Assembly (NCBI RefSeq): GCF_013122565.1
Contig: NZ_CP053258.1
Strand: one strand, 5' to 3'
Length of the DNA: 64,000 nucleotides
DNA from: Escherichia coli
Lineage (GTDB): Bacteria; Pseudomonadota; Gammaproteobacteria; Enterobacterales; Enterobacteriaceae
The notes beneath the pieces were generated by a model that had not been told where the DNA came from, made no database searches, and was given only the letters and a program-made list of their open reading frames with translations. Below, in pieces: positions 1-27,892 of this stretch; the stretch's first letter is position 1, and every line of letters begins with the position of its first letter. The position numbers and the translations under genes are program-made.

Positions 1-1
1 G

Positions 2-907: not shown

Positions 908-949
908 TTGAATAACGGAGCCGAAAGGCTCCGTTTCTTTATCGGCTAA

Positions 950-2347: not shown

Positions 2348-2449
2348 GTGGGTGTTGTGTTTAAGGCCGGGGAAGACTACGAAAGCCCCTAACTTAAACA
2401 CAATATTACGCCAGAAGTCACCATTTCCAAAACACAGCGCCGCTGTACC

Positions 2450-2683: not shown

Positions 2684-2690
2684 ATAATAA

Positions 2691-2724
2691 AAAGCCGGGA
2701 AGATTTTATTTCCTACCCGGCTTT
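2691..2724. terminator. bidirectional hairpin between convergent SymE-like gene and immunity gene
   Basis: aaagccggg ... cccggcttt inverted repeat flanked by A and T runs. Confidence 0.45.
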
Positions 2725-2729
2725 TAACA

Positions 2730-4297: not shown

Positions 4298-4376
4298 CTG
4301 CCCCGTGCGACTGGTCAGCCAGCCGCTGCGATCATACGCAAAATGCCCCCATCCGCATGCAAGCAGTATTTATCCT

Positions 4377-4682
4377 TTAGGAAAAGAGATTTATAGCTTT
4401 CTCTTGAAGTTCTATACCTATATCCTCAAGTTTGATCAGCTCGTCCTTACTGTACATTCCCTCCCGAAAAGAAAACATTCCATATACATCCATTAGTGCC
4501 AATCCTAAAACTTTTGGAACCATAATTTCATCAGCATATATTTCCGCCAAAAAATCCAGCGCCTTATATAATTCTTCAATTTCATTATCAAAAAAATCTT
4601 TCTTGAGTCTTAATCTAACAGGTATTGAATCATCTCCTAATAATTTATCGACCACTATTTTCAATGCAATCTCTTTATCCAT
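4377..4682 (-). CDS. putative immunity protein for orphan rhs module 3
   Basis: 101 aa AT-rich ORF immediately downstream of the orphan toxin tip. Confidence 0.45.
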   Translation of the reverse strand: MDKEIALKIVVDKLLGDDSIPVRLRLKKDFFDNEIEELYKALDFLAEIYADEIMVPKVLGLALMDVYGMFSFREGMYSKDELIKLEDIGIELQEKAINLFS

Positions 4683-4698
4683 ATATCATTTCCTGTCT

Positions 4699-6315: not shown

Positions 6316-6488
6316 CTAGCTGTTCAGATGGTGAATTTAACTACACCTTCTGGTTATCACCGTATTCAAGTGCCGCGATGCAACTACTGGGAAACTACAC
6401 TCATTCTCTTATTATTTTTAGAAATTTTCATCTATTAAATAATACACATGACCGATATTATTTAACCCTGCTGGGTATAACTGAAAAA

Positions 6489-7340
6489 TTATTTATTTTT
6501 AATTAAATTCATTAAATCCCAAACATTGCTATCATAATGATTGAAACCTTGAATCACAAGATAAGACAATGCTTTCATATCCAACAAAAATCTGATTTTC
6601 CCGTCTATAATTTTTGTATTTTCCGTTATAAACAATCGTTCCAATTTAACAAGATTACTTATTTTAGCTACGCTTGGAATATCACCCATTTTTGAAAAAG
6701 ATATTTTTTTAATTGAAGGTAATTTACTTACATCTTCAATGATTGACACTGCCATTTTTTTGCATAAAGATAAAGACACTTCTTCTATATTTTTCAAACC
6801 ATCTAAAAAAGTCGTGTCCGAAGCCTTAGATAATCCAGATAACTTGATGCTCCTTAAAGTCTTGATAGATGATAAATTAGGGATTGTTTGAATATTGCTA
6901 TTTTTTATCTCTAATGATTGCAAGAATGATCTCCCCGCAACATGCTCTTTTTTTTCTTTAAAATCTATCAATGTTATTTTTTCCAGAGTTCTGTGATTAA
7001 ACAAATTATCAATTCCATTTCGACCTATTAATACAGCCTCTTTTAAAAATGGGAAATATGATAAATCAAGTCTCATTTTATCATCATTCAAAAGATGGAT
7101 GAGTTGTATTTTTTTCAACGAATACAGTTGTGATATATCCTTTATTTTATTGCCTGTGATATATATTTCATTAATGAAATTAATTTCATCAAGAAATGAT
7201 AAATCAGTTATAAGCGGTGACAAAACCAACCCGTTAACTTTCTTTTCCTTCATCGTGTCAACAATATGACTTGTATCGTCATGCTTTTCATACACAAGGA
7301 CACGACTTCCCCGTACACCATAATTTTCCACTAGTCTCAT
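6489..7340 (-). CDS. putative immunity protein, leucine-rich-repeat-like, for orphan rhs module 2
   Basis: 283 aa AT-rich ORF with repeated L-rich segments, directly downstream of the orphan tip. Confidence 0.45.
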   Translation of the reverse strand: MRLVENYGVRGSRVLVYEKHDDTSHIVDTMKEKKVNGLVLSPLITDLSFLDEINFINEIYITGNKIKDISQLYSLKKIQLIHLLNDDKMRLDLSYFPFLKEAVLIGRNGIDNLFNHRTLEKITLIDFKEKKEHVAGRSFLQSLEIKNSNIQTIPNLSSIKTLRSIKLSGLSKASDTTFLDGLKNIEEVSLSLCKKMAVSIIEDVSKLPSIKKISFSKMGDIPSVAKISNLVKLERLFITENTKIIDGKIRFLLDMKALSYLVIQGFNHYDSNVWDLMNLIKNK

Positions 7341-7359
7341 ATATTTCCCCTTAAATAAA

Positions 7360-8820
7360 TCAACACTCCCCCTTCACTCTAAAATCTTGATCTGAAACAT
7401 TTCCTGTATTTGGTGGTCGTTTTTCATTACTGGTTACTCCTCTTCCTCCATTTTTAGCTATTTTCATTGCCTCTAAATTATTTAGCCATTGTTTACTAAT
7501 TCCAGCATATTTATCAAAATTCAACGAATCCAACATTGCCTGAGTTAACTTTCCACTTCGGGCATGTTGCAACATTCTCTGATATAGATTTTTTGTTTGA
7601 CCTGCATACATTTTACCCGCACCTTCATCAAAAAACTCATAAATTGCTTGCCCTTTATATTTTGCAGTAACATCTCTTATTTGTTCTAAAAAATCACTAG
7701 CGAGTCTTACTAATCCCCAAGGATCAATCCACCTCAGCGGATTCGGCGCATACCTGTAAAGATTCAGCCCACCCCGGATCGAAATCGGGTCCTGGCTTAT
7801 GAACCTTCCGCACTCCGGCGCATAATACCTGAACAGATTGTAATGCAGCCCCGTCTCTTCATCATAATACTGCCCCGGCAGCCGCAGCGGTTGCTCAAAG
7901 TACGCCCCGCTGTTGCTGATGTCGCCCCGATTTTCTCCAAATCCCGCCTGGTAGCCCGCCCACACCAGCCTCCCGTCCGGCGCGGTCACCTCCTGTACCG
8001 TGCCCGTCAGGTCCGTGTGGTAATACCAGATTTTTTGACTCTCTCCGCGCCCGGTGATGGCCGCCACTGGCGTGTACGGCTGTTCCGCGTCGTACAGGTA
8101 TGTCCGCTTTCCCTGCCACGTTGTCTCCTGCAACAGCCGGAACCCTTCCCACACAAACGTCGTCCGCCGCTGTTCCCTCTGGACCGTATGGCGGCCATAT
8201 GTCGCCTTGCTGATGCGCCTGCCCAGCGCATCATACTGATACCGCGTCTCGCTGTTGCTGCTGATGACCCGCGTTAACTGGCCCTGCGCGTTCCACTCCA
8301 GTTGCTGGTCCCTGCGCTCTGTCAGTTCGCCCCATTCGTTATAGCGGTAACGGTCACGCCCGTAGCCCGGCAGGCGGTTATCCATCACCGCGCTCTGATA
8401 CTCGTCCGTCAGCAGATTGCCCGCTTTGTCGTAATAATAATGGTCATGGTCGTACATCTGCCCCGTGCGGCTGGTCAGCCAGCCGCTGCGGTCATACGCA
8501 AAGCGCACCGTGTCCGCCTGCATGTGGTGCAGCCGTTCCCCTTCTTTCGTCGGGGTGAGCGTCACTTCCGTTATCTGGTCAAGACGGTTGTAGCTGAAGG
8601 TCCGTGTACTGTGCTGCGTGTCACTGCGCAACAGGCGGCCCAGCGCATCACGCTCCTGCCGCTCATTACGCCCCCCGCCTTCTGTACCCTGCGTCTGGAT
8701 GATGACCGGATACCCGCCCGCATTCAGCGCCAAATGGCTGAGAGAAGCGGGATTTGAGATCGGCACGGGCGTTACCGTGAAGATCTCGGAGGGATGTCTG
8801 ATCCTGCTTGCGGATAACAA
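7360..8820 (-). CDS. orphan Rhs C-terminal fragment 2: core repeat, DPWGL, GIY-YIG-like tip
   Basis: About 1.1 kb rhs core homology; tip has AIYEFFDEGAGKMYAGQTKNLYQRMLQH; the first ~30 codons are antisense to the SymE-like remnant. Confidence 0.7.
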   Translation of the reverse strand: MLSASRIRHPSEIFTVTPVPISNPASLSHLALNAGGYPVIIQTQGTEGGGRNERQERDALGRLLRSDTQHSTRTFSYNRLDQITEVTLTPTKEGERLHHMQADTVRFAYDRSGWLTSRTGQMYDHDHYYYDKAGNLLTDEYQSAVMDNRLPGYGRDRYRYNEWGELTERRDQQLEWNAQGQLTRVISSNSETRYQYDALGRRISKATYGRHTVQREQRRTTFVWEGFRLLQETTWQGKRTYLYDAEQPYTPVAAITGRGESQKIWYYHTDLTGTVQEVTAPDGRLVWAGYQAGFGENRGDISNSGAYFEQPLRLPGQYYDEETGLHYNLFRYYAPECGRFISQDPISIRGGLNLYRYAPNPLRWIDPWGLVRLASDFLEQIRDVTAKYKGQAIYEFFDEGAGKMYAGQTKNLYQRMLQHARSGKLTQAMLDSLNFDKYAGISKQWLNNLEAMKIAKNGGRGVTSNEKRPPNTGNVSDQDFRVKGEC

Positions 8821-8914
8821 CGAAGTACAGGAACTGCGCAGGGAGCTTTATCAGGTTAAACAGGCAGTTAAGGGGATGCGGGACGGGATGTTTAGTGTGC
8901 TGAACGAAAGTTAA
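8729..8914 (+). pseudogene. SymE-like 3' remnant (last ~62 codons) fused to an rhs-fragment boundary
   Basis: Near-identical to 2497..2683; homology to the first copy starts abruptly at the junction with rhs-core sequence (~8728). Confidence 0.45.
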
Positions 8915-8922
8915 ATAATAAA

Positions 8923-8955
8923 AAAGCCGGGAAGGTAAATAAGCTTCCCGGCTTT
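8923..8955. terminator. bidirectional intrinsic terminator hairpin
   Basis: 12 bp perfect stem aaagccgggaag / cttcccggcttt with 9 nt loop, flanked by A-run and T-run. Confidence 0.6.
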
Positions 8956-8975
8956 CCACAACAATTTTAACTTAA

Positions 8976-9464
8976 TTAATCATAAGCATCGCCGTAATTT
9001 TCATATTTCCAATAAATATATTTACCACCTGAGCTATATAATTTATGCAATAATTCTGTAAAAGTCATTGCAATAATTGGACAACTACCTACAACGCCAT
9101 GTATCTCATAATTGCTATCATAACAGCGTCCATTTCTTTCTGTAGAAAAATCAATGGATAAATAATCATTATTATCGGTCCTGCAAATTAAGTACCATGA
9201 AGATGATATATCATCCTCACATGGCTCACCAACTATAAATTTATTTGCCTGTAATATTTCATTATTTTTCAAAATAGTGAAGGAGATTTCCTGCTCTTCA
9301 GAGCAAAACAATTTTATTCCATTACATATTTTGTAAAAACGAACAACATCATCAGGATATTTTAAATAATCAGATGGTAATAAAGGCAAATTACCATCTG
9401 GTGGAATAACTTCACATCTGTTATCATTTTTTATCAAGTCAAGTAATTCATCAATGCCATTCAT
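8976..9464 (-). CDS. putative immunity protein (SUKH-like) for orphan rhs module 1
   Basis: 162 aa AT-rich ORF downstream of the orphan tip; LLPSDYLKY...FYKICNG pattern. Confidence 0.5.
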   Translation of the reverse strand: MNGIDELLDLIKNDNRCEVIPPDGNLPLLPSDYLKYPDDVVRFYKICNGIKLFCSEEQEISFTILKNNEILQANKFIVGEPCEDDISSSWYLICRTDNNDYLSIDFSTERNGRCYDSNYEIHGVVGSCPIIAMTFTELLHKLYSSGGKYIYWKYENYGDAYD

Positions 9465-9473
9465 ATTACCACC

Positions 9474-11312
9474 TTAAAAAATAACAGTATCAAACTTCCC
9501 AGAGTATATAAACTGGTTCAATGCCCGGTAATATGCTTCCCTACTGGCAACAGGAACATTTGCGGCATCAAACATTCGTTCAGTAAGATCTTTCATTTCT
9601 CTGCTACTTACTGTTGTCCAATCCACTTTCCCACCAACTCTTCTTCCGGTTTTCTGCTCTAACCAATCTCTATATACTTTTTTTGTTGCAGCATGATTAG
9701 CCTCGGATAATGCAATTGTTGGTGACTTTGAAGGATATTTCCCTCCATAAGATGGCACATTCTTAGACATCCAAATATCAAGCACACCATGATGGTTTTC
9801 TAAAGAGGAATTAATTGGTCGATAAGGAACAACATCAAACTCTTTAACTTCACCGCACTTAAGTCCAAGGGGATCTATCCACCCCAGCGGATTCGGCGCA
9901 TAAGCATACTGGTTCAGCCCACCCGCCAGCCCTATCGGGTCCTGGCTTACGAACCGCCCGCACTCCGGCGCATAATACCTGAACAGATTATAGTGCAGCC
10001 CCGTCTCTTCATCATAATACTGCCCCGGCAGCCGCAGCGGCTGTTCAAAGTACGCCCCGCTGTTGCTGATATCGCCCCGGTTTTCGCCAAATCCCGCCTG
10101 GTAGCCCGCCCACACCAGCGTCCCGTCCGCCGCGGTCACCTCCTGTACCGTGCCCGTCAGGTCCGTGTGGTAATACCAGATTTTTTGACTCTCTCCGCGC
10201 CCCGTGATGGCGGCCACCGGCGTGTACGGCTGTTCCGCGTCGTACAGGTATGTCCGCTTTCCCTGCCACGTTGTCTCCTGCAACAGCCGGAACCCTTCCC
10301 ACACAAACGTTGTCCGGCTTCGTTCTCCCCGGTCCGTATGGCGGCCATATGTCGCCTTGCTGATGCGCCTGCCCAGCGCATCATACTGATACCGCGTCTC
10401 GCTGTTGCTGCTGATGACCCGCGTTAACTGGCCCTGCGCGTTCCACTCCAGCTGCTGGTCCCTGCGCTCTGTCAGTTCGCCCCATTCGTTATAGCGGTAG
10501 CGGTCACGCCCGTAGCCCGGCAGGCGGTTATCCATCACCGCTCCCTGATATTCATCCGTCAGCAGGTTGCCCGCTTTATCGTAATAATAATGGTCATGGT
10601 CATACATCTGCCCCGTGCGGCTGGTCAGCCAGCCGCTGCGGTCATAGCTGAACACCAGGCAACCGCGCAGTTTGTCATTGATGCCGCCGACTTCACCGTC
10701 TGCGTTCCAGATATAGTCCCGCGCTGTCACGCTGTCGCTGTGTGACGGGGGTGTGGCTGTCTGCTGTGGGTTCTGGCTGCCGCCTGGCAGGCTGCGCTGC
10801 CAGCTTAACCGGTTGTCGGCGTTGTAGCCGCTGAACGTCGCCAGTTTCCCCTGGGTGCGCATCACCTGACGGTGCAGACTGTCACGCTCATATTCACTGA
10901 CCGTGATACCGTCCAGTGCCGTCTGGAGCAGATGTCCGCTGCCGTAGTAAAGATGGCTGAGGTGCTGCCCGTTCGGTAACGTGATGTCGGTGGGATTGCC
11001 CAGCGCGTCACGCTGATATTTTATGCTGCCGTGCACGCTGTGCTCTGCCGTCAGCCACCCGCTGCGGTCATACGCAAAGCGCACCGTGTCCGCCTGCATG
11101 TGGTGCAGCCGTTCCCCTTCTTTCGTCGGGGTGAGCGTCACTTCCGTTATCTGGTCAAGACGGTTGTAGCTGAAGGTCCGTGTACTGTGCTGCGTGTCAC
11201 TGCGCAACAGGCGGCCCAGCGCATCACGCTCCTGTCGCTCATTACGCACCCCGCCTTCTGTACCCTGCGTCTGGATGATGACCGGATACCCGCCCGCATT
11301 CAGCACAAACAT
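9474..11312 (-). CDS. orphan Rhs C-terminal fragment 1: core repeat, DPLGL, unassigned toxin tip
   Basis: About 1.6 kb homologous to main rhs (to ~11476, where an in-frame stop precedes it); first ATG at 11312; tip ~130 aa with no recognizable motif. Confidence 0.7.
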   Translation of the reverse strand: MFVLNAGGYPVIIQTQGTEGGVRNERQERDALGRLLRSDTQHSTRTFSYNRLDQITEVTLTPTKEGERLHHMQADTVRFAYDRSGWLTAEHSVHGSIKYQRDALGNPTDITLPNGQHLSHLYYGSGHLLQTALDGITVSEYERDSLHRQVMRTQGKLATFSGYNADNRLSWQRSLPGGSQNPQQTATPPSHSDSVTARDYIWNADGEVGGINDKLRGCLVFSYDRSGWLTSRTGQMYDHDHYYYDKAGNLLTDEYQGAVMDNRLPGYGRDRYRYNEWGELTERRDQQLEWNAQGQLTRVISSNSETRYQYDALGRRISKATYGRHTDRGERSRTTFVWEGFRLLQETTWQGKRTYLYDAEQPYTPVAAITGRGESQKIWYYHTDLTGTVQEVTAADGTLVWAGYQAGFGENRGDISNSGAYFEQPLRLPGQYYDEETGLHYNLFRYYAPECGRFVSQDPIGLAGGLNQYAYAPNPLGWIDPLGLKCGEVKEFDVVPYRPINSSLENHHGVLDIWMSKNVPSYGGKYPSKSPTIALSEANHAATKKVYRDWLEQKTGRRVGGKVDWTTVSSREMKDLTERMFDAANVPVASREAYYRALNQFIYSGKFDTVIF

Positions 11313-11517
11313 CCGTATCAGACCGTCCGGGCGCTGTTCTCCCGTCAGCCGTCCGTCCGCATCGTGACTGAACCGGTAAAGCGCTCCGTTGCCGTTGCTC
11401 AGACTGGCAATCCATCCCTCCGCGGTATAATGCCAGCGCGTCTCCCGTTTCTCTTCATCCGTGTGGCACGCCAGTTAACATACGTCTACTGACAAAACCA
11501 TTAGTCCAAACAAAATC

Positions 11518-16474
<4,957 letters not shown>

Positions 16475-16497: not shown

Positions 16498-18711
16498 TTA
16501 TTCAGAAACGTCCGGGGTAGGTAACGGGGCAATATCATCCGCAGTCATGGCTGTGCCGCCATCCGGATTCATATCAATGCCACTGCCAATGAGTTGCATA
16601 ACATCGCTGGTGTGCAGTAAAAGTTGTTTTCCGCAAAACTCAATCGAGCCATCCTTGTGTAATACAAGCGCTGCATTGCCGCAACGAAGGGTAAATTGAT
16701 CGCCAACATCCAGACGATATGTCGTTCCGACATTGATGGTTTGAGCCAGTTTGACGGAAAGACCATCATTTTTTGTGATGGTGGCATTACGGTCTTCTCC
16801 CACGCTGATGGTTTCATTTTTGACAATGGTTTTTATGCGATCGACCATGACCGTGTGGGTTTCATTGTTTTTTACCGTGGTATTGAGGTCTTTTTCCGCA
16901 TGGAACTTCACCTCTTCTGCCCCCGTTTTATCGTCAAAGCGCAGCATGTTTCCGTTGGTCGGCCCGCCATACAGCGAGTGGCTGAATATCCCGCTCTGCG
17001 AGGCCATACCCGGCAGTCCCCACGGCGGCATGGTGTCCTGGTTATAGGTGCGCCCTACAATGATCGGTAAATCCGGGTCGCCGTTTTTGAAATCCACCAG
17101 CACTTCCTGACCGATGCGCGGGATCTGGATCATGCCGAATCCTTTCCCTGCCCACGGATAGCTGACGCGGATCCAGCAGGAGCTGTTTTCGTCATTATTA
17201 CCGTAACGATCCCAGCCAAACTGCACCTTCACCCGTCCATATTTGTCCGTCCAGATTTCCTGCCCCGCCGGGCCGGTGACGATGGCGCTCTGCGGGCCTT
17301 TGGTGTGGGGTTTGCTCAGGGTTCGCTGTGGGCGGTAAACTTCGCTGGTTGGGTGCAGTTCAAACGTGGTGACATAGGTAAAATGCTGATCCTGGCCGCT
17401 GTGCTGCGCATTGTCCCGTAAAAACAGCGTGGTCTGTACCAGCAGGTATTCCTGATTAATTTCTGCCGTCGGGTGATTCATCAATGTAAAGGTGTACCCG
17501 GTCATGAGGGTACGGATATGACCGGCCCCATGTGCCCGGCTGCCTGGGCTACGCTGCGCTTCCATACGAATACGCGTCAACATCTCGCCTTCGCCCGTAG
17601 TGAAGTAATCACCAGGCCATTCGTAATGCTCGTATTCAGCATGACCGGTATCACGCGGACTGGCCACGGTACTTTTAAGCAGCGAACGAGGCTTCATAAA
17701 ATCAAAATCGTCCATCACCCACTTTCCAGTACGCAGCCTCTCACTGGCCGTAATGGTGTGAATAAATTCCTTATCCAGTTTCAGCCCTTCCTGGTGCCAC
17801 TCCACCAGTGGCGAGTCAGGGCACGCTTTATGACCATTGATGGCATCCGCCAGCACCAGCGTGTGGCTGTTCTCGCTGTGCTCAAACCACCAGTAAATTC
17901 CCCACTCCTGCATCAGGCGCTGGATGAAATCAAAATCCGTTTCACCGTACTGTACCTGCCAGGCACGAGGTGGATAATTTTCCACCAGCCGTTTTTCCAC
18001 CGGAAAGGAATATTCATCCAGTACTTCATCGAGAATATCCACCACGGTTTTATTCTGGAACGCTTTGTAGTCGCTGGTGTGGGTCAGCAGTTTCAGCCAC
18101 GGTTCAATGCGTAATTCATACGTTACCGAGCGGCCCTCATGGCCCACCACCCGCGCCGCTGTCACCAGCCCGCTGATATGCCGTTTGCCGCCGCCGTCCA
18201 GTTCGATATTGACGCACAGATCTTTGCCCACCATGGGCTGAAGCGGCAGGTTAGCAGCGGGGGAAACGTACCCCAGGTTCAGGGCGTCCGGCGTTTTAAG
18301 CTGTACTGTGTAGGAAAACAGATTCCCAAGCCCTTCCGAACCATTCATGCCTGCAAACAAAAGCATCTGCGGCGGCACCGCACTACCACTTACTGTGACG
18401 TTATGCGCCCCCGGACCACCTGCAGCAAGCGACGCCGCCGCATCCTGAACTGCACCAGCCATATCCGATATCCCTGCTGCGGCGGCTGCGGCTTGCGCAG
18501 CAGCTACTGCGGCTTTAACCAGACCTGACGGTTCCGGCAACGCACCAAACAGGTCCGCCGCTGCCTGTTCTACCATCTGCTCGGCTGCATCAGCTACATC
18601 GGTTGCGGCTGAACCAGGGCTTATACCACCACTTTCGCCAGCTATTGGTGGTGTGGTGATGACGGGTCCACCGTTTCCAACTGGTTTATTACCCGTAGAT
18701 ACAAAACTCAT
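16498..18711 (-). CDS. vgrG: VgrG spike protein (TssI) with ~95 aa Ala/Gly/Pro-rich N-terminal extension
   Basis: gp27/gp5-like motifs ([39 protein letters not shown]); AAGGAG RBS 7 nt before ATG at 18711. Confidence 0.9.
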
Positions 18712-18735
18712 GATATTTGCTCCTTTAATACCGGA

Positions 18736-19122
18736 TTAAAATCTAGCCCCTGGTGGCCAAAAAATATAAGTAATAACTCTCCATTGCCCGTCTTTATAAT
18801 GAAACCAACATGTCAGATTCAAATCCCCCTGCAAATTCCAGAACATTTCCTTAATAGGAACATCTTGAAATTCAGGATCTGTTATGCGATAAGTTTGATT
18901 CAAGCCGATATAATACTCACCAACAAATTTATATCGTGGCCTCACGAACTCATGAGCAGGCGGCCCATATTTTTTCATAAAAAAGATGTCATTACTTCCA
19001 TCATGTATATCATTTTCTTCATAATATTTGGTGGATTGAGCAACTGCAGAAGGCTTGAAAACATTCACTGTAGTTATGTAAGTTATTGAAAGAAAAATCA
19101 CTATAATGCAGAAAAATTTCAT
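18736..19122 (-). CDS. putative secreted immunity protein for HExxH effector 1
   Basis: 128 aa with N-terminal signal peptide; paralog of 20819..21181; overlaps effector stop. Confidence 0.5.
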   Translation of the reverse strand: MKFFCIIVIFLSITYITTVNVFKPSAVAQSTKYYEENDIHDGSNDIFFMKKYGPPAHEFVRPRYKFVGEYYIGLNQTYRITDPEFQDVPIKEMFWNLQGDLNLTCWFHYKDGQWRVITYIFWPPGARF

Positions 19123-19820
19123 TTGGTTACATTCAATAAAGTAAATTTAGTTTCAGGCATTATGACATTCAACGTTATAGTTGCGTTTTTAAGGTATCGT
19201 TCCCGAAGCTCCATTCCCACATTCATCAACCCACTAATATCTCCAACATACGGAGACGAAGAATCATAATCATCATCTAAGTAACCAAGTACATGTCCGG
19301 CTTCATGAGGTATATTTACTTGCAACGTATTGTTACAGTTAATACATTTCGCTACTTTTTCCAGGTCCGCTGAATCAACATGAACCGTACTGTTTTTAAA
19401 ATCAACATATGTTCTTAAATCAGCACCAGGCAAAACCTTTGTTGCAATAACCAACCAGTCTTCATTCTGAGATGCAGAAATTATTCTTACATCAAAAGGC
19501 AAAGCTTTACCCTGAAATTTTTTAGCGAACTCAGATTCACCGGAAACAGAATAAGTTATTTTCCCATTCCATGCCTGCTGAACAGATAAATATATCGCTC
19601 GCATAAAAATAGCTTTTTCCCATATAGTCCAGTCATCTGTAACGGTATTATCCTTATACCACTCATACTTCCATCTTATCACAGCCGTAATCGAACCAGT
19701 ATTTTGATTTAATAAATACGTCCTCCTACCATCCTTATGTATAATGATATCGCCATCAATATTTGTTTTTTCATAGTATTCGGCCAGCAAACTATTCTCA
19801 TCATATTTAAGCTTGGTCAT
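19119..19820 (-). CDS. putative T6SS effector 1, HExxH zinc-metallopeptidase-like
   Basis: 233 aa, no signal peptide; HEAGHVLGYLDDDY motif; paralog of 21178..21984 (shared ALMNVGMELRERYL). Confidence 0.55.
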   Translation of the reverse strand: MTKLKYDENSLLAEYYEKTNIDGDIIIHKDGRRTYLLNQNTGSITAVIRWKYEWYKDNTVTDDWTIWEKAIFMRAIYLSVQQAWNGKITYSVSGESEFAKKFQGKALPFDVRIISASQNEDWLVIATKVLPGADLRTYVDFKNSTVHVDSADLEKVAKCINCNNTLQVNIPHEAGHVLGYLDDDYDSSSPYVGDISGLMNVGMELRERYLKNATITLNVIMPETKFTLLNVTK

Positions 19821-19879
19821 TTTACTCTCATTAAATAATAATTATTTGTATCGAAAATATTATTTTATATATTACGAGT

Positions 19880-19905
19880 ATTGCCCCTTCAGCCGCAGCG
19901 CATCC
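19880..19905. repeat. short remnant of the tagF 3' coding end
   Basis: cagccgcagcgcatccacataccg matches tagF 3' end at ~23275..23300. Confidence 0.5.
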
Positions 19906-20032
19906 ACATACCGTCCTTCACTGCAGGGCAAGATTACGAAAGCCCGCCCCCCGCAAGGACTGACGCGAGGTAGTTTCTGTCCATGGCTGCTTTTCTCATC
20001 TTACGTCTTAACCCTGCCTTGGTTTCGCCGTA

Positions 20033-20794
20033 CTACACCTGCCAGGCGCGGGGGGGATAATTTTCCACCAGCCGTTTTTCCACCGGAAAGGAATATTCAT
20101 CCAGTACTTCATCGAGAATATCCACCACGGTTTTATTCTGGAATGCTTTGTAGTCGCTGGTATGGGTCAGCAGCTTCAGCCATGGCTCAATGCGTAATTC
20201 ATACGTTACCGAACGGCCCTCATGGCCGACCACCCTCGCCGCCGTCACCAGCCCGCTGATATACCGTTTTCCGCCACCGTCCAGTTCAATGTTGACGCAC
20301 AGGTCTTTGCCCACCATGGGCTGAAGCGGCAGGTTAGCAGCGGGGGAAACGTACCCCAGGTTCAGGGCGTCCGGCGTTTTAAGCTGTACTGTGTAGGAAA
20401 ACAGATTCCCAAGCCCTTCCGAACCATTCATGCCTGCAAACAAAAGCAGCTGCGGCGGCACCGCACTACCACTTACTGTGACGTTATGCGCCCCCGGTCC
20501 ACCGGCAGCAATCGACGCCGCCGCATCCTGAACTGCACCAGCCATATCCGATATCCCTGCTGCGGCGGCTGCGGCTTGCGCAGCAGCTACTGCGGCTTTA
20601 ACCAGACCTGACGGTTCCGGCAACGCACCAAACAGGTCCGCCGCTGCCTGTTCTACCATCTGCTCGGCTGCATCAGCGACATCGGTTGCGGCTGAACCAG
20701 GGCTTATACCACCACTTTCGCCAGCTATTGGTGGTGTGGTGATGACGGGTCCACCGTTTCCAACTGGTTTATTACCCGTAGATACAAAACTCAT
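20033..20794 (-). pseudogene. truncated vgrG 5' duplicate (first ~253 codons with identical RBS and start)
   Basis: Near-identical to 17950..18711 including the Ala-rich extension; homology ends ~20025. Confidence 0.7.
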
Positions 20795-20818
20795 GATATT
20801 TGCTCCTTTAATACCGGA

Positions 20819-21181
20819 TTAAAATTTGGATCCTGGCGGCCAATAAACTCGGGATATAACTATCCATTTACCATTTTTATAATGAAGCCAACATGTTAAA
20901 TTTAGATCTTTATTAACATTCCAAAACATCTCCTTAATAGGAACATCTTTAAATTCAGGATTATTTGAAGGGTAAGTCCGTTCTATGCCACCATAATAAA
21001 TACCTACAAAATCATGCCTTGGGTTTATAAAATAATGTTCAGGAGAACCATATTTTCTCACTAGTGAATCTTCATCATCCCCCCACTGAACATCTTTGTT
21101 ATGCATCTCACTGGCAAAAATATCTAGAGTTACAAGCAATATCAATAACGTAAAAAATAGAGCGATTTTCTTCTGGATCAT
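20819..21181 (-). CDS. putative secreted immunity protein for HExxH effector 2
   Basis: 120 aa with signal peptide; C-terminal region paralogous to 18736..19122. Confidence 0.5.
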   Translation of the reverse strand: MIQKKIALFFTLLILLVTLDIFASEMHNKDVQWGDDEDSLVRKYGSPEHYFINPRHDFVGIYYGGIERTYPSNNPEFKDVPIKEMFWNVNKDLNLTCWLHYKNGKWIVISRVYWPPGSKF

Positions 21182-21984
21182 TTTATTACACTCGCAACAG
21201 AAAACGTAGTTAAGGGATATACTAAATTCAAGTCAATACAGACACCTTCCAGGTAGCGTTCCCGAAGTTCCATCCCAACATTCATTAACGCGGCAGTATC
21301 TATTTTATATTTAGACACAGGCTTACCAAACTTATCAAGTTCATATTCATCCTCCAGATAACGAATCATATGTCCAATTTCATGAACTATATTTACCTGA
21401 TAAAAACCACATATTGACTGATTCTCTGGAGCACATTTTTCTGATAACGAAGTATCTTTAAAATAAAAATGAGCAAACCGATTTTTCCAGTTAACATAAG
21501 GCCTGCCATCATCATTACCAGGAACGGTTCTTAATACGTCTACATTCCAGTGTTCTTTTTGATGGACCGGAATCATATTTATGCTGAAAGGCAATCTTTT
21601 ACTCTTGAATTTCTCAGCAAAATCAGAGTCCCCTGAGACAGATAAAAATATCTTATCATTCCATCCATAACAGATTGCAGAAAATGATTCATATATAAAA
21701 CTAACTTCATCCAGGTATGTCCAGTTATCTCCTACATTGTTCTGATTCACCCAGTTAAATTTCCATCTCATTAATAATGCAATGTCGCCTGTATCACTAT
21801 TCAGGATATATTCGCCATGTTCTGTATTCATCCTGAGACACTTCCCATCTTCTACGGTGTCAGGGCAAAACTTATGCATGAGTTTAATAAAGAATTCATG
21901 CGATAGATTTATTTTACTCTCTCCAACAACACCATCTACATGTGTTGTGAGCGAACCAGATTTATTCCCTGAAGAAGAACTCAT
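21178..21984 (-). CDS. putative T6SS effector 2, HExxH zinc-metallopeptidase-like
   Basis: 268 aa; HEIGHMIRYLEDEY motif; paralog of 19119..19820. Confidence 0.55.
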   Translation of the reverse strand: MSSSSGNKSGSLTTHVDGVVGESKINLSHEFFIKLMHKFCPDTVEDGKCLRMNTEHGEYILNSDTGDIALLMRWKFNWVNQNNVGDNWTYLDEVSFIYESFSAICYGWNDKIFLSVSGDSDFAEKFKSKRLPFSINMIPVHQKEHWNVDVLRTVPGNDDGRPYVNWKNRFAHFYFKDTSLSEKCAPENQSICGFYQVNIVHEIGHMIRYLEDEYELDKFGKPVSKYKIDTAALMNVGMELRERYLEGVCIDLNLVYPLTTFSVASVIK

Positions 21985-22180
21985 GCTATTGACTCCTTTA
22001 ATACTGGGGTAGAGATTTAGCCCACGACAGTCGTATTCCTGTTTTTTACATCCAATAAAATAGAATATTAATAAATTAGGATAATATTTTTACTTTACTC
22101 ACTCTACTTTCAATCTGAGTTCTCCGTACAATCGGGTTCTGACATTGAACCTTCCGACTGAAATACACCACTCCCCCCTC

Positions 22181-22294
22181 TATCCAGTCGCAACGCATCC
22201 ACATACCGCCCCCTTGCTGTTCTGCTGCCAGAACCATCCATGCCCCTGCTGCGCCTGCGTTAACATTTTTGCTAGCCAGCACGGTCACGGCAGG
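22181..22294. repeat. ~115 bp duplicate of the tagF 3' coding end
   Basis: Near-identical to 23271..23385; lies between the Tge/Tgi pair and HExxH effector 2. Confidence 0.6.
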
Positions 22295-22311
22295 CAATTC
22301 CATGACATGTA

Positions 22312-22773
22312 CTACTCATCCGTACAACCCAGCCCCCGGCGCTGAACCACTTCACTGGCAAACGTTGCTCCGGTTTTTTTCATTATTCCCTGCTGGATTT
22401 TTTGTAACTCCGGGTATACAACCCGCTCACATTCATTTATTTCCCATATGTCACCCGTCTTAGGACTAACCGAAAACAACCCTAAATAGTCTGTTGCTCC
22501 AGCAGTCGGCGTATCATAGCCAAGACTAAAATCATAATATCCGGGATGAGGCGCATTGCCCTGACCATCCTGTAAATCTCCATCAATAAAAATCCCTTCC
22601 AGCGATAAATTATACTTTTGGTGCCTGAGTACAATAATAAGCAGTTTTTCCGCCTGTGCTTTCGTCATCCCTTCGCGGTTTATATCTGATAAATTAAATT
22701 CAGACGTATTCCCCTGAACGTAGCAAACCGCAGAGGCAAGAAGAAAAAAAACAAATATTATTTTACGGGGCAC
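22312..22773 (-). CDS. putative secreted immunity protein (Tgi-like)
   Basis: 153 aa with signal peptide; immediately downstream of and overlapping the glucosaminidase-like gene. Confidence 0.5.
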   Translation of the reverse strand: MPRKIIFVFFLLASAVCYVQGNTSEFNLSDINREGMTKAQAEKLLIIVLRHQKYNLSLEGIFIDGDLQDGQGNAPHPGYYDFSLGYDTPTAGATDYLGLFSVSPKTGDIWEINECERVVYPELQKIQQGIMKKTGATFASEVVQRRGLGCTDE

Positions 22774-23228
22774 GCCATTCTCCTTCCGACCATAATAATA
22801 ATGTCAGCAGTTTTTTTGGCATAATTATCTGTTCCGCCTGTGCTACTATCTCCAGAATTAAATCCGGCCTTTACCAGAGCATCACAGAAAGCCAAAGCAT
22901 CCTTTATGTCTCTGGCTGCATTACCATATTTTATTGCAAAAGATCGTGCACAGATTGAAAAAGACGGAAAAGTAGCCACCCGGGTTTTCTTGTTACCGTG
23001 CGGACGGATTTCGCCTGACTGAAATGATGCAGGGGCATGCAGGGAGAAATAGTTGTTATATTCCCTGGCAATACGGCCTGTACCATACTGGCTCTCCGCC
23101 GCGGCAAGCCCCAGAATATTTTCCACAGGAACATTAAGTTGTTTAGCGATTAATTCACATTCTTTCAGATGCTGCTGAACAAACCTTACTGCATTAACAT
23201 CATTACAGGCTTTGTCATAAGACCCCAT
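22758..23228 (-). CDS. putative peptidoglycan glycoside-hydrolase effector (FlgJ/GH73 glucosaminidase-like, Tge-like)
   Basis: 156 aa, no signal peptide; ILGLAAAESQYG and NNYFSL resemble the FlgJ glucosaminidase motifs. Confidence 0.55.
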   Translation of the reverse strand: MGSYDKACNDVNAVRFVQQHLKECELIAKQLNVPVENILGLAAAESQYGTGRIAREYNNYFSLHAPASFQSGEIRPHGNKKTRVATFPSFSICARSFAIKYGNAARDIKDALAFCDALVKAGFNSGDSSTGGTDNYAKKTADIIIMVGRRMACPVK

Positions 23229-23255
23229 GATCCACTACTCCTTATCTGATTATTT

Positions 23256-24029
23256 TTAATGCTGCCGGATATCCAGCCGCAACGCATCCACATACCGCCC
23301 CTCGCTGTTCTGCTGCCAGAACCAGCCCTGCCCCTGCTGCGCCTGCGTCAGCATTTTGTCCGGCCAGCCCGGCCACGGCAGGTGGCGCACACCGGGCAGT
23401 TCCACTACCGGCACGTCCGGCAGGCCGGTGAGTTCCCGGCTACGCTGCGGTACACGTCGTAAGCCGCGTAGCCACTGCGCCCAGCGCGGCCCCGGTCGCC
23501 ACATCGCCCAGAGCTGGTCTGTCTGCTCCGCCAGTCGACCGCAGCGTTCTGTCTGTGGTGAGACATGAGCTGCCGTCAACTGCGCCAGCCAGTACAGCCA
23601 GCCCTTTGTGTCATCCAGGCTCTCTTCCAGCCATTCCCGCCCGGCACGCTGGTAAATCACCAGTGGCCACGACCTGCCCGTACTGTCACGTGAGGCGGTC
23701 AGCACCCCGGTCAGCCACTCATCGCGCCCGCCAATGGGGAGAAATCCCGGCGATAATACAAAGCTCCACGGTAGCGGATGGTGTTCCGGCACCTCCGTTT
23801 TCTCGCGCGGTGACAGGTGCATCCAACCGTCATTTACTCCGGTTTTCGCAGCATCCGTTCCTTCCGGCAGAACAATATGCCGCCCCTGTCCCAGCCACGT
23901 CTGCTGGTTCAGCCACGCCTGCCACACCTGCCCATCGTTCGCGCTCACCCGCCAGCGCACGTAGTCCCGCTGATCCGGCAGTCTGCCGAACATCGCCGGA
24001 ACCGATACCACCGCAGCCCGGCGCATCAC
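23256..24029 (-). CDS. tagF: type VI secretion-associated protein TagF (DUF2094)
   Basis: 257 aa; FGRLPDQRDYV N-terminal motif; overlaps tssM stop. Confidence 0.75.
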   Translation of the reverse strand: MMRRAAVVSVPAMFGRLPDQRDYVRWRVSANDGQVWQAWLNQQTWLGQGRHIVLPEGTDAAKTGVNDGWMHLSPREKTEVPEHHPLPWSFVLSPGFLPIGGRDEWLTGVLTASRDSTGRSWPLVIYQRAGREWLEESLDDTKGWLYWLAQLTAAHVSPQTERCGRLAEQTDQLWAMWRPGPRWAQWLRGLRRVPQRSRELTGLPDVPVVELPGVRHLPWPGWPDKMLTQAQQGQGWFWQQNSEGRYVDALRLDIRQH

Positions 24030-27000
24030 AGCGCTCGCTCCGGGCAGGCGAAGCGTTGCAGTAGCCCACGGTTCACCGGGTCAAAATCCCGTCCTGCGGT
24101 GATTTCCAGCACCACCCGCCGCCCGTCAAAGCTATATTCAACCTGCTGTGTTCCCCGTACCGCCGTCTCCTGCGCGTTACCCGCATCCAGCAGGTGAAAC
24201 AGCGCCCACGGTCCGTTAGTCAGCAGCGTCGAGGTGTCCTGGCGGATGCGCGGGCTGGCGGTGATTTCCGCCATTGAGCCGTTGCGCGGCCCCGGCCAGT
24301 TCACTTTCAGCGGTCTGACCGGGCCGTGAGCGTAACGCAGCACCTGACCGTCGATATCAATCACCAGTTCAGTGATTGCAGGGTCCATATCCACGACGCG
24401 GACCTGCATCGCCCAGGAAAACTTTTTCCCGCCTTCACCGTTAAAAAAAACGCTGCGGATCTGTTTCGCCTCCTGAAACGGCGTCAGGTCCGGCCCCTGT
24501 AAGGTCATGTTGCCTTCGGTCGGTTTGTAGCGCCACGGGTTGCTGGCGGTGTCCGCCAGCGGGGCCAGTTGCTTCGTCCAGAACGCATCCAGCACACCGC
24601 CGCTGGCAAAGATATGGTTAAAATCGTCCGCGCTGACCTCCTGCGGGCTGTCGGTAAAGGGGTAGCGCCCGTCAATAGCATCACGGCACTCATCGCCAAT
24701 CACCGCTTCCATCTGCGCGTTCAGCACTTCACCGGTGCCGGCGTTGATTTTGCGCGTTCCCTGCTGCGTGAGATCCAGCAAAATATTTTTCAGCGGTGCG
24801 GGCAGTTTTGCCGCCTCCAGTTGCAGTTTATCCGCCGCCGAAATACGGCCAGGTAATGTGCTCGCTGCCAGCGCGCTGTCGGCGATGGTGAGCTGGGTGT
24901 AATATTCATTGAGCATTGTCAGCAGCGAATTTAACTGCGGCGCGCCACCAGTCTGCCCGCTGTCTGTCCGCCCGGAAACCACTTCCCGCAAGGCGGCGAA
25001 ACGGTCATCCACCAGTGATTTCTCCAGCCGCTCTTCCGGGTGGATGTCCTGTAACAGCTTTGCCGTCTGCCCCGCTTTTCCCACATTGCCGGAGAGCCGG
25101 TCCTGCGCACGCTGGGCCATCTGCTTTTGTCTGGCCTGCGCATCCAGCGGCGGCACCAGCGTGGTCTGCTCCACCACCGCTTTACTCAGGCGCATCAGCG
25201 GGGAATCCGGCGAGGCCAGGGTACGCAGCACCTGAAGGTCATACGCCAGCCCGGGACTGCCGTCTTCCCCGGCACTGTTGATGCTGTGAATACTTGCCAG
25301 AAAATCCTGCCAGCGGCGGGCATATTCAGCCAGGTACAGGCGGCGTACCTCACGGGTAACCGGGAGTTCCTGCCCCGGCAACTGGCTCATCACAATATCC
25401 GTTGTTTTTTTTTGCGCGTTTTCCCGGCCCATCACCCAGGCATCGTCCGCTGATGCGGCTGCGACAAACTCCGACAGCCGTTTGTCGAACAGTTCCCGGT
25501 AGCCTTCGCGAGTGAAGATGCCGGGCACGCCCCTATCCAGCGGCGCGCCATCCGTGCGGACAAAAACCGTTCCCGCATCCGCGCCCACAGCGCGAACCAG
25601 CGAAAACTCCTGCGGTGCTTCGCTCTCCATGGAAGCCAGGGCTCGAGTGTAGATACGCTCGGTGCTGGTATGGCCGTCAAGGAAGGCTCGCGCCTGGCGG
25701 ATCAGCCCCTCATCTTTTTCCCAGGGCGAATGCACCACGCGGCTGCCGTCAAACAGGGCATCGATATGCTCCAGCACGGCGGCGCGACCGCCGAACTCCG
25801 CCACGCTGTCGCGGTTGTCCAGGTCGTTCAGCACCCAGGCGTGGATCTCCGCCGCGTTGTATTTATCCTCGTGGTCCTTATCGAGGTTCAGCAACAGATA
25901 AACATGCAGGGCGTCATAGGCGGCTTTGCTGTCCTGACGCGCAATCGCATCCGAAAGCACGTATTCCATGCGTTTCACCAGCGGTGGCAGCAGTAACTGG
26001 TCCAGCAGGCGGTCATACAGGGATGCGACGCTCTCCATCACCGGCGGAACGCTGTAAAGACCATAACGCCAGGCCAGCGGCGGCGAGTCCGGGTCCAGTC
26101 CCGGCCAGGCAGAGAGCGCCCGTGCCTGGTTCAGCAGGGCCGGAACAGGCTGCATAGCAGGTTTTCCGGTATAGGCTTTGACATCACCATCCAGTTGGGT
26201 CGTCCGGCTGGCGATTTCATTCAGATAACCGCTGTTACCCTGCTGGCTGCCCTGCATTCCCTGCCACAACCAGAAAGCCAGCGCCAGTACCAGCAGATGC
26301 CCGCCAGTGCGCAGCAGGCGGTAACGCCAGGCCCACTGAAGGTTCGGCTCCACCAGGTGCGCTTCGCGGAAGATAAACTGCGTCAGTAGATCGTGCAGGA
26401 AATAGCTGCGGTTGCCGTCCGGCAGGGTATGGGATGGGGAATCAGCCTTCCCTTTGATAGCACGGACAAAACGCTGCCAGATGCCCGTCTTGTCAGCCAC
26501 GGCGTCTGCCTGCGCCTGCGCGGCGCTGGTAAAAAATACGCCGCGCAGGGTGTTGTTAAGCTGGGTGGCGTCAAATTTTGAATCGAGGAAAATCTGCTCA
26601 ATGGCTTCCAGCAGCGGCGCACCCAGCGCGGCAAATTCACGCGGGAAGCGATAGAGCCGCTGGCGGCTTTTAAGGTCGTACTCTTCCTGCAACCGGGTAT
26701 CCAGCCCCTGATCCAGCCGCAGGGTCAGGTTTGCCAGTTCCTGGCTACAGAGCGCATGCAGCGACTGCGGATCGCTGGCGTGACGCCTGCGGCTGTATGG
26801 CAGAGTAAAGCCCCAGACCTGGGCGCGCAGGTGGCTGGTCAGCCCGTGGAAATACTCCGTAAAGCCCGGCAGCAGATCCATCTTGGTGACAACCAGATAG
26901 ACCGGAAAACGAATACCCAGCGTCTCCCGCAGTTCCGCCAGCCGCGCACGCAGGGCCGCACAGGCAGCCAGCCGTTCCGCCGGGGACTGCGCAGTCAGAT

Positions 27001-27892
27001 CCGCCACGTTCAGCGTCAGGATCACGCCGTTGAGCGGTGCGCCGGGGCGGTGTTTACGCAGCAGTCCCAGAAACCCGTGCCACTCCCCGGCGTTGCGCTG
27101 GGTCGCGCTGATTTCGCCACCGTCATCGTGACGGGCATAGCGCCCGGCGGTGTCAATAAGCACTGCTTCGTTGGTAAACCACCAGTCGCAATGCAGCGTT
27201 CCGCCGCCCGGCACGGTGAGGATATGCGCGGTTTGCTCCATCTGCTCCGCCAGCGGAAACTGCAATCCGGTGTTGAGCAGTGCTGTGGTTTTACCGTCGC
27301 CGGGGCTACCGATAACCATGAACCAAGGCAGTTCGTACAGAAAACGTTTTCCTTCCAGTACGTTACGCCAGCCCGGCAGGTCTACGCGCAGCTGTTTCAG
27401 TTGCCGAATAGCGCGAGTGACAATATGGCTGACGGTGCGTAAGTCGGCTTTAATTTCCCCGGCCACCGGTACGTCTTCCCCGCGCGGATGCAGGAAACGG
27501 CGCAGCAGTTGTTCGTCCAGACGCAGCGCCCGCCACAGCCGGTACAGGCCATACAGCGCATAAGACAGAAGGATCAGGCCGATAAGCGTCAGACGCAGCC
27601 ACAGCGGCGCAAATGGATGAACATCACCGAAAGCCAGCAACGGTGAGACAAAGCCGATAACCAGGCACAGAACCGTAACGCCAATGATGCTCATAGACCA
27701 GTTAACCAGCCACAGTGCGAGGAACATCAGTAACAGAACGATGGTGACTAACCGACTTCCCACGGACGCGAGTGGATGCAGGGTGTCAAACGCGACCAGC
27801 GGCCCAATAAACCAGACCAGCAACGCCAGCATTACCAGGCCAACAATGGCCAGCGCGCGGCGGGAAAACAGCATACTGAGAAATTTTTGCAT
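24026..27892 (-). CDS. tssM: T6SS membrane-complex protein TssM (IcmF)
   Basis: 1288 aa; N-terminal transmembrane helices, Walker A GSPGDGKTT, large periplasmic domain. Confidence 0.9.
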   Translation of the reverse strand: MQKFLSMLFSRRALAIVGLVMLALLVWFIGPLVAFDTLHPLASVGSRLVTIVLLLMFLALWLVNWSMSIIGVTVLCLVIGFVSPLLAFGDVHPFAPLWLRLTLIGLILLSYALYGLYRLWRALRLDEQLLRRFLHPRGEDVPVAGEIKADLRTVSHIVTRAIRQLKQLRVDLPGWRNVLEGKRFLYELPWFMVIGSPGDGKTTALLNTGLQFPLAEQMEQTAHILTVPGGGTLHCDWWFTNEAVLIDTAGRYARHDDGGEISATQRNAGEWHGFLGLLRKHRPGAPLNGVILTLNVADLTAQSPAERLAACAALRARLAELRETLGIRFPVYLVVTKMDLLPGFTEYFHGLTSHLRAQVWGFTLPYSRRRHASDPQSLHALCSQELANLTLRLDQGLDTRLQEEYDLKSRQRLYRFPREFAALGAPLLEAIEQIFLDSKFDATQLNNTLRGVFFTSAAQAQADAVADKTGIWQRFVRAIKGKADSPSHTLPDGNRSYFLHDLLTQFIFREAHLVEPNLQWAWRYRLLRTGGHLLVLALAFWLWQGMQGSQQGNSGYLNEIASRTTQLDGDVKAYTGKPAMQPVPALLNQARALSAWPGLDPDSPPLAWRYGLYSVPPVMESVASLYDRLLDQLLLPPLVKRMEYVLSDAIARQDSKAAYDALHVYLLLNLDKDHEDKYNAAEIHAWVLNDLDNRDSVAEFGGRAAVLEHIDALFDGSRVVHSPWEKDEGLIRQARAFLDGHTSTERIYTRALASMESEAPQEFSLVRAVGADAGTVFVRTDGAPLDRGVPGIFTREGYRELFDKRLSEFVAAASADDAWVMGRENAQKKTTDIVMSQLPGQELPVTREVRRLYLAEYARRWQDFLASIHSINSAGEDGSPGLAYDLQVLRTLASPDSPLMRLSKAVVEQTTLVPPLDAQARQKQMAQRAQDRLSGNVGKAGQTAKLLQDIHPEERLEKSLVDDRFAALREVVSGRTDSGQTGGAPQLNSLLTMLNEYYTQLTIADSALAASTLPGRISAADKLQLEAAKLPAPLKNILLDLTQQGTRKINAGTGEVLNAQMEAVIGDECRDAIDGRYPFTDSPQEVSADDFNHIFASGGVLDAFWTKQLAPLADTASNPWRYKPTEGNMTLQGPDLTPFQEAKQIRSVFFNGEGGKKFSWAMQVRVVDMDPAITELVIDIDGQVLRYAHGPVRPLKVNWPGPRNGSMAEITASPRIRQDTSTLLTNGPWALFHLLDAGNAQETAVRGTQQVEYSFDGRRVVLEITAGRDFDPVNRGLLQRFACPERAL

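Follow-up and report, generated by a model that had tools for sequence, protein, structure and literature searches.

The toxin repertoires of type VI secretion systems (T6SS) decide whether strains can coexist, so the way in which such repertoires grow matters. For Vibrio cholerae, Kirchberger et al. (2017, PMC5361080) explained effector-immunity arrays by displacement through homology-facilitated illegitimate recombination: modules taken from other strains join the conserved T6SS genes at a constant site, presumably with homology at one end and an illegitimate joint at the other, and the resulting arrays are then exchanged between strains by homologous recombination. In Salmonella pathogenicity island 6 (SPI-6), Tge2/Tgi2P and Tlde1 are encoded in variable region 2 (VR2), located downstream of tssM; the variable regions of the island (VR1-2) were considered possible recombination hotspots, no mobile elements were found around them, and the hotspot idea was left open (Blondel, Amaya et al. 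2023, PMC10469887). The present analysis concerns a T6SS island in a 64,000-nt stretch of Escherichia coli DNA (contig NZ_CP053258.1; "the window"), in which three tandem effector-immunity modules all lie between the T6SS genes tagF and vgrG: Tge-Tgi, encoding a glycoside-hydrolase-type effector, and eff2-imm2 and eff1-imm1, encoding candidate effectors with an HExxH motif. They are accompanied by two short copies of the tagF 3' end (tagF' and tagF''), a fragment of the vgrG 5' end (vgrG') and the end of an ISEc1 insertion sequence (IS). The tagF-vgrG interval is probably a cargo slot in which three cassettes were joined in tandem; of the three copies of the tagF end, one belongs to the working gene, and the other two would be scars of recombination.

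Every gene between tssM and Rhs is encoded on the minus strand, and the order in the direction of transcription is tssM, tagF, Tge-Tgi, tagF', eff2-imm2, vgrG', 98 bp of ISEc1, tagF'', eff1-imm1, vgrG, EagR and Rhs. As in V. cholerae, the junctions carry partial duplicates of the flanks (114 bp in tagF', 34 bp in tagF'' and 773 bp in vgrG'), which is consistent with one homologous and one illegitimate end. In V. cholerae, however, older effectors disappear and only orphan immunity genes accumulate, whereas eff1 and eff2 are intact open reading frames (ORFs); moreover, the scars of the window stem from the structural genes on either side (tagF 3' and vgrG 5') and from an IS end instead of from effector genes. 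Orphan immunity of the V. cholerae kind does occur in relatives, as the loci of Enterobacter (L017) and Pseudenterobacter (L022; loci compared are cited by such numbers) have truncated HExxH effectors but kept the immunity genes. With SPI-6 VR2, the locus shares the kind of island, the position after tssM and the cargo classes (a Tge2/Tgi2P-type glucosaminidase and other predicted cell-wall effectors). It differs in that the cassette boundaries of the Escherichia counterpart are marked by explicit scars and an IS relic; the contigs compared from Salmonella ended just after tagF. This trace of a mobile element bears on the point left open for SPI-6 (PMC10469887). The orphan arrays of Rhs and contact-dependent inhibition systems, as far as PMC5361080 relates them from Jackson et al. 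(2009), likewise consist of tandem modules, each behind a fragment of conserved sequence that acts as a homology arm; in that account, it is the conserved core of the toxin gene that is repeated, whereas the fragments repeated here stem from neighbouring genes that do not encode toxins. The phenomenon as such is known, and the window is a clear but ordinary example of it, the gain being one of detail and not of principle. Specific to it are the origin of the scars in neighbouring structural genes, the IS relic at one junction and the intactness of the older effectors. With its breakpoints, IS relic and population counts, it provides a worked example of how cassettes can be gained without loss of the old ones and how relics of core genes can be reused as recombination arms.

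Remnants of the tagF end and their cassette-specific tails

A sequence-only reading of the window had reported that the last part of tagF recurs behind the Tge-Tgi pair and, in a shorter form, upstream of eff1. The three segments indeed align well beyond chance. Intact tagF (23270-23382) and tagF' (22181-22294) are identical in 101 of 114 columns (88.6%) with a single 1-nt indel (BLAST expect value E 4e-37, 145-nt query searched against all 64 kb), a pair that a repeat search also reported, and tagF'' (19890-19923) matches 23274-23307 without gaps at 30 of 34 positions (E 3e-7). The coordinates given earlier for the first two copies were right to within 1-3 nt. For the third, the location upstream of eff1 holds, but its position (19880-19905, ∼25 bp) was 10-18 bp off and the actual segment comprises 34 bp. 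That segment ends 69 nt upstream of the eff1 start codon at 19820, and from 19923 to 19795 the window is collinear (114 of 144 positions) with a locus of E. coli 06-00048 that runs from the end of an intact tagF through the stop codon and spacer into the start of eff1. The shortness of the third copy might invite the notion of chance similarity, or the repeats might be put down to faulty assembly. In view of the E values, the collinearity with an intact tagF-eff1 locus and the occurrence of the same junctions in dozens of independent complete genomes, both can practically be dismissed.

What the short copies represent emerges when 21 tagF ends, from intact genes as well as relics, are aligned. 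Homology among all of them stops at one point, after ...YVDALRL and ∼10-16 nt before the stop codon. Beyond it, the last codons of tagF and the following spacer vary with the cassette that comes next, with separate versions for Tge, effX (a further HExxH effector gene of related loci), eff1, eff2 and the cassette of locus L009. The Tge-type tail and spacer were found only in loci where Tge comes after tagF, and all loci with Tge have this 27-nt spacer, conserved to 92-100%. The relics tagF' and tagF'' bear the tail type of the cassette located 3' of each. Because the last codons of tagF are cassette-specific, each relic is a former tagF gene end that its following cassette once directly followed. 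The collinearity with 06-00048 points the same way, so the proposal that the short copies are relics of tagF ends left by cassette joining is borne out. In relatives, RefSeq names the tagF' relic partial TagF or a pseudogene.

To place the junctions in a population, 5426 complete E. coli genomes were searched, and ten annotated E. coli loci were compared for gene order. Some part of the region is shared by 2692 of the genomes; the whole arrangement occurs in none, the best match covering 85%. The simplest state observed is tagF, HExxH effector, immunity gene and vgrG, with eff1-imm1 alone in L004, a 735-bp effX alone in L006 and L008, and another effector type in L009. In a second state, tagF is followed by Tge, Tgi, tagF', one HExxH cassette and vgrG, the cassette being eff2-imm2 in L001 (strain VE-T9; no eff1 unit present) and effX in L005 and L007. 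Loci L002, L003 and L010 show this second state, or a variant with Tae4/Tai4, followed by vgrG', the IS stump, tagF'', eff1, imm1 and vgrG; in these three, the eff1 unit comes after effX and not after eff2. Twelve genomes share the junction of Tgi, a 17-nt joint and tagF', with identical breakpoints, and it also occurs in the Escherichia loci L016 and L024, which are not E. coli; the joint is 100% identical in L001, L002, L005, L007, L010 and L016. This junction lies behind at least three Tge-Tgi alleles and before two different HExxH cassettes. The junction of vgrG', IS and tagF'' is present with the same breakpoints in 33 genomes. It accompanies 33 of the 34 eff1 cassettes in E. coli, the lone eff1 behind an intact tagF being a divergent allele (87% identical).

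These counts bear on the claim that an ancestral tagF-vgrG junction repeatedly acquired cassettes, each event duplicating part of the tagF end. If taken literally, there would be a favoured insertion process at this site, be it with a long target-site duplication or at an integron-like site. Several observations would fit such a process. Two tagF-end copies precede two cassettes in the same orientation, and cargo at this same interval, with varied cassettes, was found in related loci of Escherichia, Citrobacter, Enterobacter and Pseudenterobacter, the interval being variable in every relative examined. In addition, there is an independent tagF relic in the same slot of a second genus: in Citrobacter amalonaticus (L019), tagF is followed by an unrelated cassette, 105 bp of vgrG', 46 bp of tagF'', an HExxH effector, an immunity gene and vgrG, with junction breakpoints that differ from those of the window and thus mark independent scars. 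(The cross-genus sample is thin, as a contig search with TagF gave four loci.) However, the relics are of unequal length (114, 34 and 46 bp), the three junctions share no motif, and no large unassigned ORF that would suit a recombinase lies between Rhs and tssM. Nor does cargo insertion account for the 34-bp copy, which ends at an IS terminus instead of a cassette end and is paired with a 773-bp vgrG duplicate that such a process does not predict. An empty junction as the ancestral state also finds no counterpart: tagF directly beside vgrG was seen in no locus examined, an HExxH cassette always lying in between. Finally, the same breakpoints recur in every carrier of either junction. A dedicated insertion process is therefore improbable. 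Because the breakpoints of each junction are identical in all carriers, the two scars go back to two rare, one-off events that spread afterwards, and not to recurrent insertion.

The start of eff2 suggests an earlier junction of the same kind. Positions 22023-21961 match 18685-18749, that is, the end of the immunity gene, the spacer with the ribosome-binding site (RBS) and the first ∼10 codons of vgrG (50 of 66 positions; E 1.7e-7 in the 7.7-kb region). This relic of a vgrG start now supplies the RBS, start codon and N-terminus of eff2, and the N-terminus of the latter, MSSSSGNK, resembles that of VgrG, MSFVSTGNK. A protein-level search for older effector or immunity relics in the two intergenic regions yielded none beyond the tagF and vgrG pieces. 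One might suppose that the remnants were kept for a function, such as promoter, translation start or RNA element for the downstream effector, since one of them does provide eff2 with RBS, ATG and first codons. The conservation of tagF' (93.3-100% among the 12 carriers) and the short ORF running through it could be read in the same sense. This conservation, however, is accounted for by recent common descent; tagF' is frameshifted and annotated as a pseudogene; and a promoter/terminator scan of 18600-24100 gave fewer promoter-like sites than shuffled sequences, with one weak 9/12 site at 22113-22086 and nothing else in the relics. Furthermore, the same cassettes would be expressed directly behind tagF in loci free of relics. 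Retention for function consequently has a low probability.

ISEc1, the vgrG fragment and the proposed joining of the eff1 unit

The second repeat of the interval, vgrG' (20022-20794), which like the IS end had not been linked to the tagF copies in the sequence-only reading, is 96.6% identical over 773 bp to the start of full-length vgrG (17939-18711), the spacing being 2083 bp. It contains a CAG>TAG nonsense change near its end; in relatives, the annotation reads "phage late control D family protein, partial". As a 253-codon ORF with its own RBS and start, vgrG' could express a truncated VgrG N-terminus. This spacing and weak DNA similarity within the effector genes are what a local tandem duplication would leave, in which a 2083-bp unit (tagF end, effector, immunity gene and vgrG 5' part) was duplicated in place and eff1/imm1 and eff2/imm2 diverged as paralogues. 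Yet the amino-acid identity of eff1 and eff2 is only 39%, against 96.6% identity for the vgrG 5' copies, each cassette occurs alone elsewhere (L001, L004), the same second unit stands behind effX in L002, L003 and L010, and an IS stump lies at the unit boundary. Duplication in place is thus very unlikely, more so than a dedicated insertion process.

More than 5200 E. coli genomes contain ISEc1 copies to which the 98-bp segment between vgrG' and tagF'' is 95.9-96.9% identical. These matches are the 3' ends of transposase genes of the ISAs1 family (ISEc1, H-repeat), for example, yhhI and ydcC. H-repeats have long been associated with Rhs elements. Here, too, an element of the ISAs1 family, with CAGGG(C/A)AAGAT as its terminal repeat, is found at a rearrangement junction in an Rhs/T6SS island, but it is a 98-bp stump in the tagF-vgrG slot that marks the joining of cassettes, and not an insertion in or by an rhs gene. 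The terminus of ISEc1 (CAGGGCAAGATTACG) was defined from three copies in unrelated contexts; it is intact in the window, beginning at 19924 and directly abutting tagF'' at 19923. On the other side of the stump, an internal position of the IS is joined to vgrG nt 773 without obvious microhomology. There is no other ISEc1 sequence in the window. A complete ISEc1 at this place was found in Escherichia sp. E1V33 (L016), which has the same gene order as the window: a 1291-bp copy (12439-13722 of that locus), 94.5% identical to that of a BL21(DE3)-derived strain (L012), sits between a shorter vgrG' (ending at vgrG nt ∼337) and the same 34-bp tagF''. L016 and the window have the right junction (IS terminus/tagF'') in common, whereas their left junctions differ. 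Hence tagF'' is the remainder of a second tagF, to the right of the ISEc1 insertion site.

From these junctions, the following history can be proposed. In a first event, a Tge-Tgi cassette with its own tagF end would have been joined illegitimately at position -114 of the resident tagF, leaving tagF' before an older HExxH cassette. The second event would have started from an ISEc1 in the 3' end of a tagF preceding eff1-imm1; a rearrangement or deletion would then have joined the IS to a vgrG 5' fragment from another version of the interval, giving rise to vgrG'-IS-tagF''-eff1-imm1-vgrG. As tagF'' is accompanied by the 773-bp vgrG duplicate, this event would have joined two alternative intervals of tagF, effector, immunity gene and vgrG in tandem. 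Two differing deletions may have followed, of which that of E1V33 ended exactly at the IS end, while the window and 33 E. coli genomes would have lost most of the IS. Each junction, having arisen once, would then have moved or recombined behind different cassettes by homologous recombination, with crossovers within the conserved flanks and the scars themselves. The net effect would be that cassettes are added and not swapped, and the cell keeps several toxin-immunity pairs.

That scars can serve in such exchanges is suggested by the window itself. Between 20055 and 23300, a stretch that extends from vgrG' nt 720 across imm2, eff2, tagF', Tgi and Tge into the last 45 nt of tagF, 4 of 3246 positions are different from VE-T9 (L001; 99.9% identity), and the density of single-nucleotide differences rises to ∼9% inside tagF from 23301. 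Diagnostic sites in vgrG' are L001-like up to nt 720 and of the fragment lineage from nt 744, including a marker at nt 768 found only in the fragments. The window is thus a recombinant of a VE-T9-like locus and a locus with the eff1 unit, with a crossover inside the vgrG relic; since the switch of lineage falls inside vgrG', the remnant would have served as homology arm. The longest exact run shared by the two vgrG 5' copies is 165 bp compared with 24 bp for tagF and tagF', so that the eff1 unit should be lost by recombination much more easily than Tge-Tgi. A more general role of the scars as portable homology arms, the tagF piece before and the vgrG piece behind making each pair a self-contained plug-in that homologous recombination could add to any strain with this T6SS or remove again, is conceivable but rather doubtful. 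If true, cargo stacking of the SPI-6 type would be driven by rare IS-mediated or illegitimate events that create homology arms, which would explain a hotspot without visible mobile elements. A Campbell-type model, with the 2083-bp eff1 unit as a circle and a single crossover, had been prompted by apparent switches at vgrG nt 652-740; it was left unsupported once the full vgrG 5' copy proved to be a mosaic.

A number of points weigh against the joining of three cassettes as proposed. The 17-nt joint between Tgi and tagF' shows no IS, recombinase site or clear microhomology, and the mechanism of the first event is therefore not visible. Neither an eff2-type locus with an intact tagF nor an eff2-type tail and spacer behind one was found among the 5426 genomes, in which eff2 occurs only three times, always with tagF'. 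For the second event, the participation of the IS is evident from the junction, but we infer the order of its steps, because a query with the synthetic left junction detected no tagF split by a complete ISEc1 in these genomes, and because the complete ISEc1 of L016 lacks a target-site duplication, its flanks (vgrG nt ∼337 and tagF'') being neither contiguous nor repeated. As to the recombinant nature of the window, the full vgrG 5' copy is a mosaic, mostly L001-like when compared site by site, in which no position can be assigned to the right-hand crossover, and the two vgrG 5' copies may also have exchanged sequence by gene conversion. Lastly, the effector and immunity functions of the cassettes are predicted.

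Cargo, neighbouring genes and related islands

The features of the interval and its flanks are compiled in Table 1. The T6SS of the window belongs to the aspV-linked Escherichia island, a tRNA-Asp (45631-45707) adjoining an ORF in the dnaQ position (annotation taken from the collinear loci L014 and L015). The profile TIGR03373 (TagF) scored 39.6 bits against the tagF product of the window, which is just below the cut-off of 41.2, and homologues at 70-93% identity carry PF09867 (TagF_N) according to precomputed hits. The stop codon of tssM overlaps the tagF start by 4 nt, and hence the slot between these two genes is empty in the window. In L003, L004 and L006, it is filled by a Tae4-Tai4 (Rap1a-family) cassette. 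The GC content is 33-38% in the HExxH cassettes, 40-46% in Tge-Tgi and 52-65% in tagF, tssM and both vgrG 5' copies.

Table 1. Features from tssM to the first Rhs gene of the window, in the direction of transcription
Feature	Position	Strand	Remarks
tssM	24026..27892	-	1288 aa, T6SS membrane-complex core gene; orthologues annotated tssM
tagF, intact	23256..24029	-	257 aa; orthologues are TagF domain-containing proteins in RefSeq
tagF repeat copy 1	23270..23382	-	Conserved 3' end of intact tagF
Tge-type tagF tail (...DIRQH*) and 27-nt spacer	23229..23269	-	From alignment of 21 tagF ends
Tge-like glycoside-hydrolase effector	22758..23228	-	156 aa; PF01832
Tgi-like immunity gene	22312..22773	-	153 aa, hydrophobic N-terminus consistent with signal peptide
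17-nt joint, Tgi stop to tagF'	22295..22311	-	
tagF' (repeat copy 2)	22181..22294	-	114-bp pseudogene relic of tagF 3' end, 1-nt frameshift
eff2-type tagF tail and spacer	22024..22180	-	Matches only L001-type loci
Relic of immunity-gene 3' end, imm-vgrG spacer with RBS and first ∼10 vgrG codons	21961..22023	-	
eff2, HExxH candidate effector	21178..21984	-	268 aa, intact ORF
imm2, candidate immunity gene	20819..21181	-	120 aa, hydrophobic N-terminus consistent with signal peptide
vgrG' and 24-nt upstream spacer	20022..20818	-	773-bp vgrG 5' fragment is 20022-20794
ISEc1 terminal 98 bp (ISAs1 family, H-repeat)	19924..20021	-	Last 29 transposase codons and intact terminal inverted repeat
tagF'' (repeat copy 3)	19890..19923	-	34-bp relic of tagF 3' end, abuts ISEc1 terminus
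eff1-type tagF tail (...KGQYS*) and spacer	19821..19889	-	Collinear with E. coli 06-00048
eff1, HExxH candidate effector	19119..19820	-	233 aa
imm1, candidate immunity gene	18736..19122	-	128 aa, hydrophobic N-terminus consistent with signal peptide
vgrG, full-length	16498..18711	-	737 aa; TIGR03361, E 2e-166
DcrB/EagR-type adaptor	16031..16474	-	147 aa; orthologues DcrB-related, with PF08786
PAAR-Rhs effector, first gene of downstream Rhs array	11871..16010	-	From ORF and RefSeq annotation of relatives

The Tge product matches the Pfam family Glucosaminidase (PF01832, E 1.2e-9), and its orthologues are annotated as glucosaminidase domain-containing proteins; Tgi alleles of L007 and L024 were assigned to Tgi2PP (PF21576) by annotation or score. 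The HExxH family, in turn, is a separate lead, as eff1 and eff2 gave no match to Pfam, NCBIfam or PDB sequences and "hypothetical protein" is the only annotation given to the eff1 homologues (from E. coli, Citrobacter and Enterobacter). Candidate effectors of this family are restricted to Enterobacteriaceae. The HExxH motif and a C-terminal LMNxGxELRxRY are invariant across the eff1/eff2 family, and H172-E173-x-x-H176 is invariant in ten homologues. In an AlphaFold2 model of eff1 (mean predicted local distance difference test score 72.9), the top seven PDB folds retrieved by Foldseek were catalytic domains of matrix metalloproteinases or karilysin, that is, metzincins, with weak, non-significant matches (E 0.06-0.1; template modelling score 0.25-0.35). 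That eff1 and eff2 encode metallopeptidase effectors is therefore a prediction. The immunity gene imm1 is conserved beside eff1 in 34 genomes; imm2 shares ∼44% amino-acid identity with imm1 (tblastn) and is 100% identical to the copy in L001. The hydrophobic, signal-peptide-like N-termini of imm1 and imm2 suggest a periplasmic target.

A second, unrelated type of cargo occupies the same slot in L019 (9783-10881) and L017 (11508-12705); it consists of a gene for a protein of 282-315 amino acids with a conserved NNCTTHS, followed by one for a membrane protein of ∼90 amino acids. In L017 (Enterobacter sp. ENT03), there is also a 77-bp segment (2391-2464), 83% identical to the 3' end of the tagF of this locus and located ∼2.7 kb upstream of tssM, which might represent a further relic of tagF in some other slot. 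L014 and L015 (E. coli L73 and LR-31) contain a decayed T6SS island in which vgrG', a tssM fragment and a tssA fragment are joined next to aspV, while eff1-imm1 is kept. Of the 33 genomes that have the eff1 unit, at least these two carry such a decayed island, and 22 of the 33 matches listed are annotated like these two. Within the T6SS cluster of the window, ARAGORN called a 94-nt tRNA-His at 43235-43328, inside a long ORF of the cluster (41569-43452); this call is probably a false positive. A classical Rhs displacement array occupies window positions 1-16010, downstream of vgrG, and consists of the main PAAR-rhs gene (11871-16010) with four orphan modules behind it. The orphan modules open with copies of the rhs core end of 0.8-1.6 kb (3550-4336, 5076-6314, 7710-8496 and 9859-11474), which are 91-97% identical to 12255-13871.

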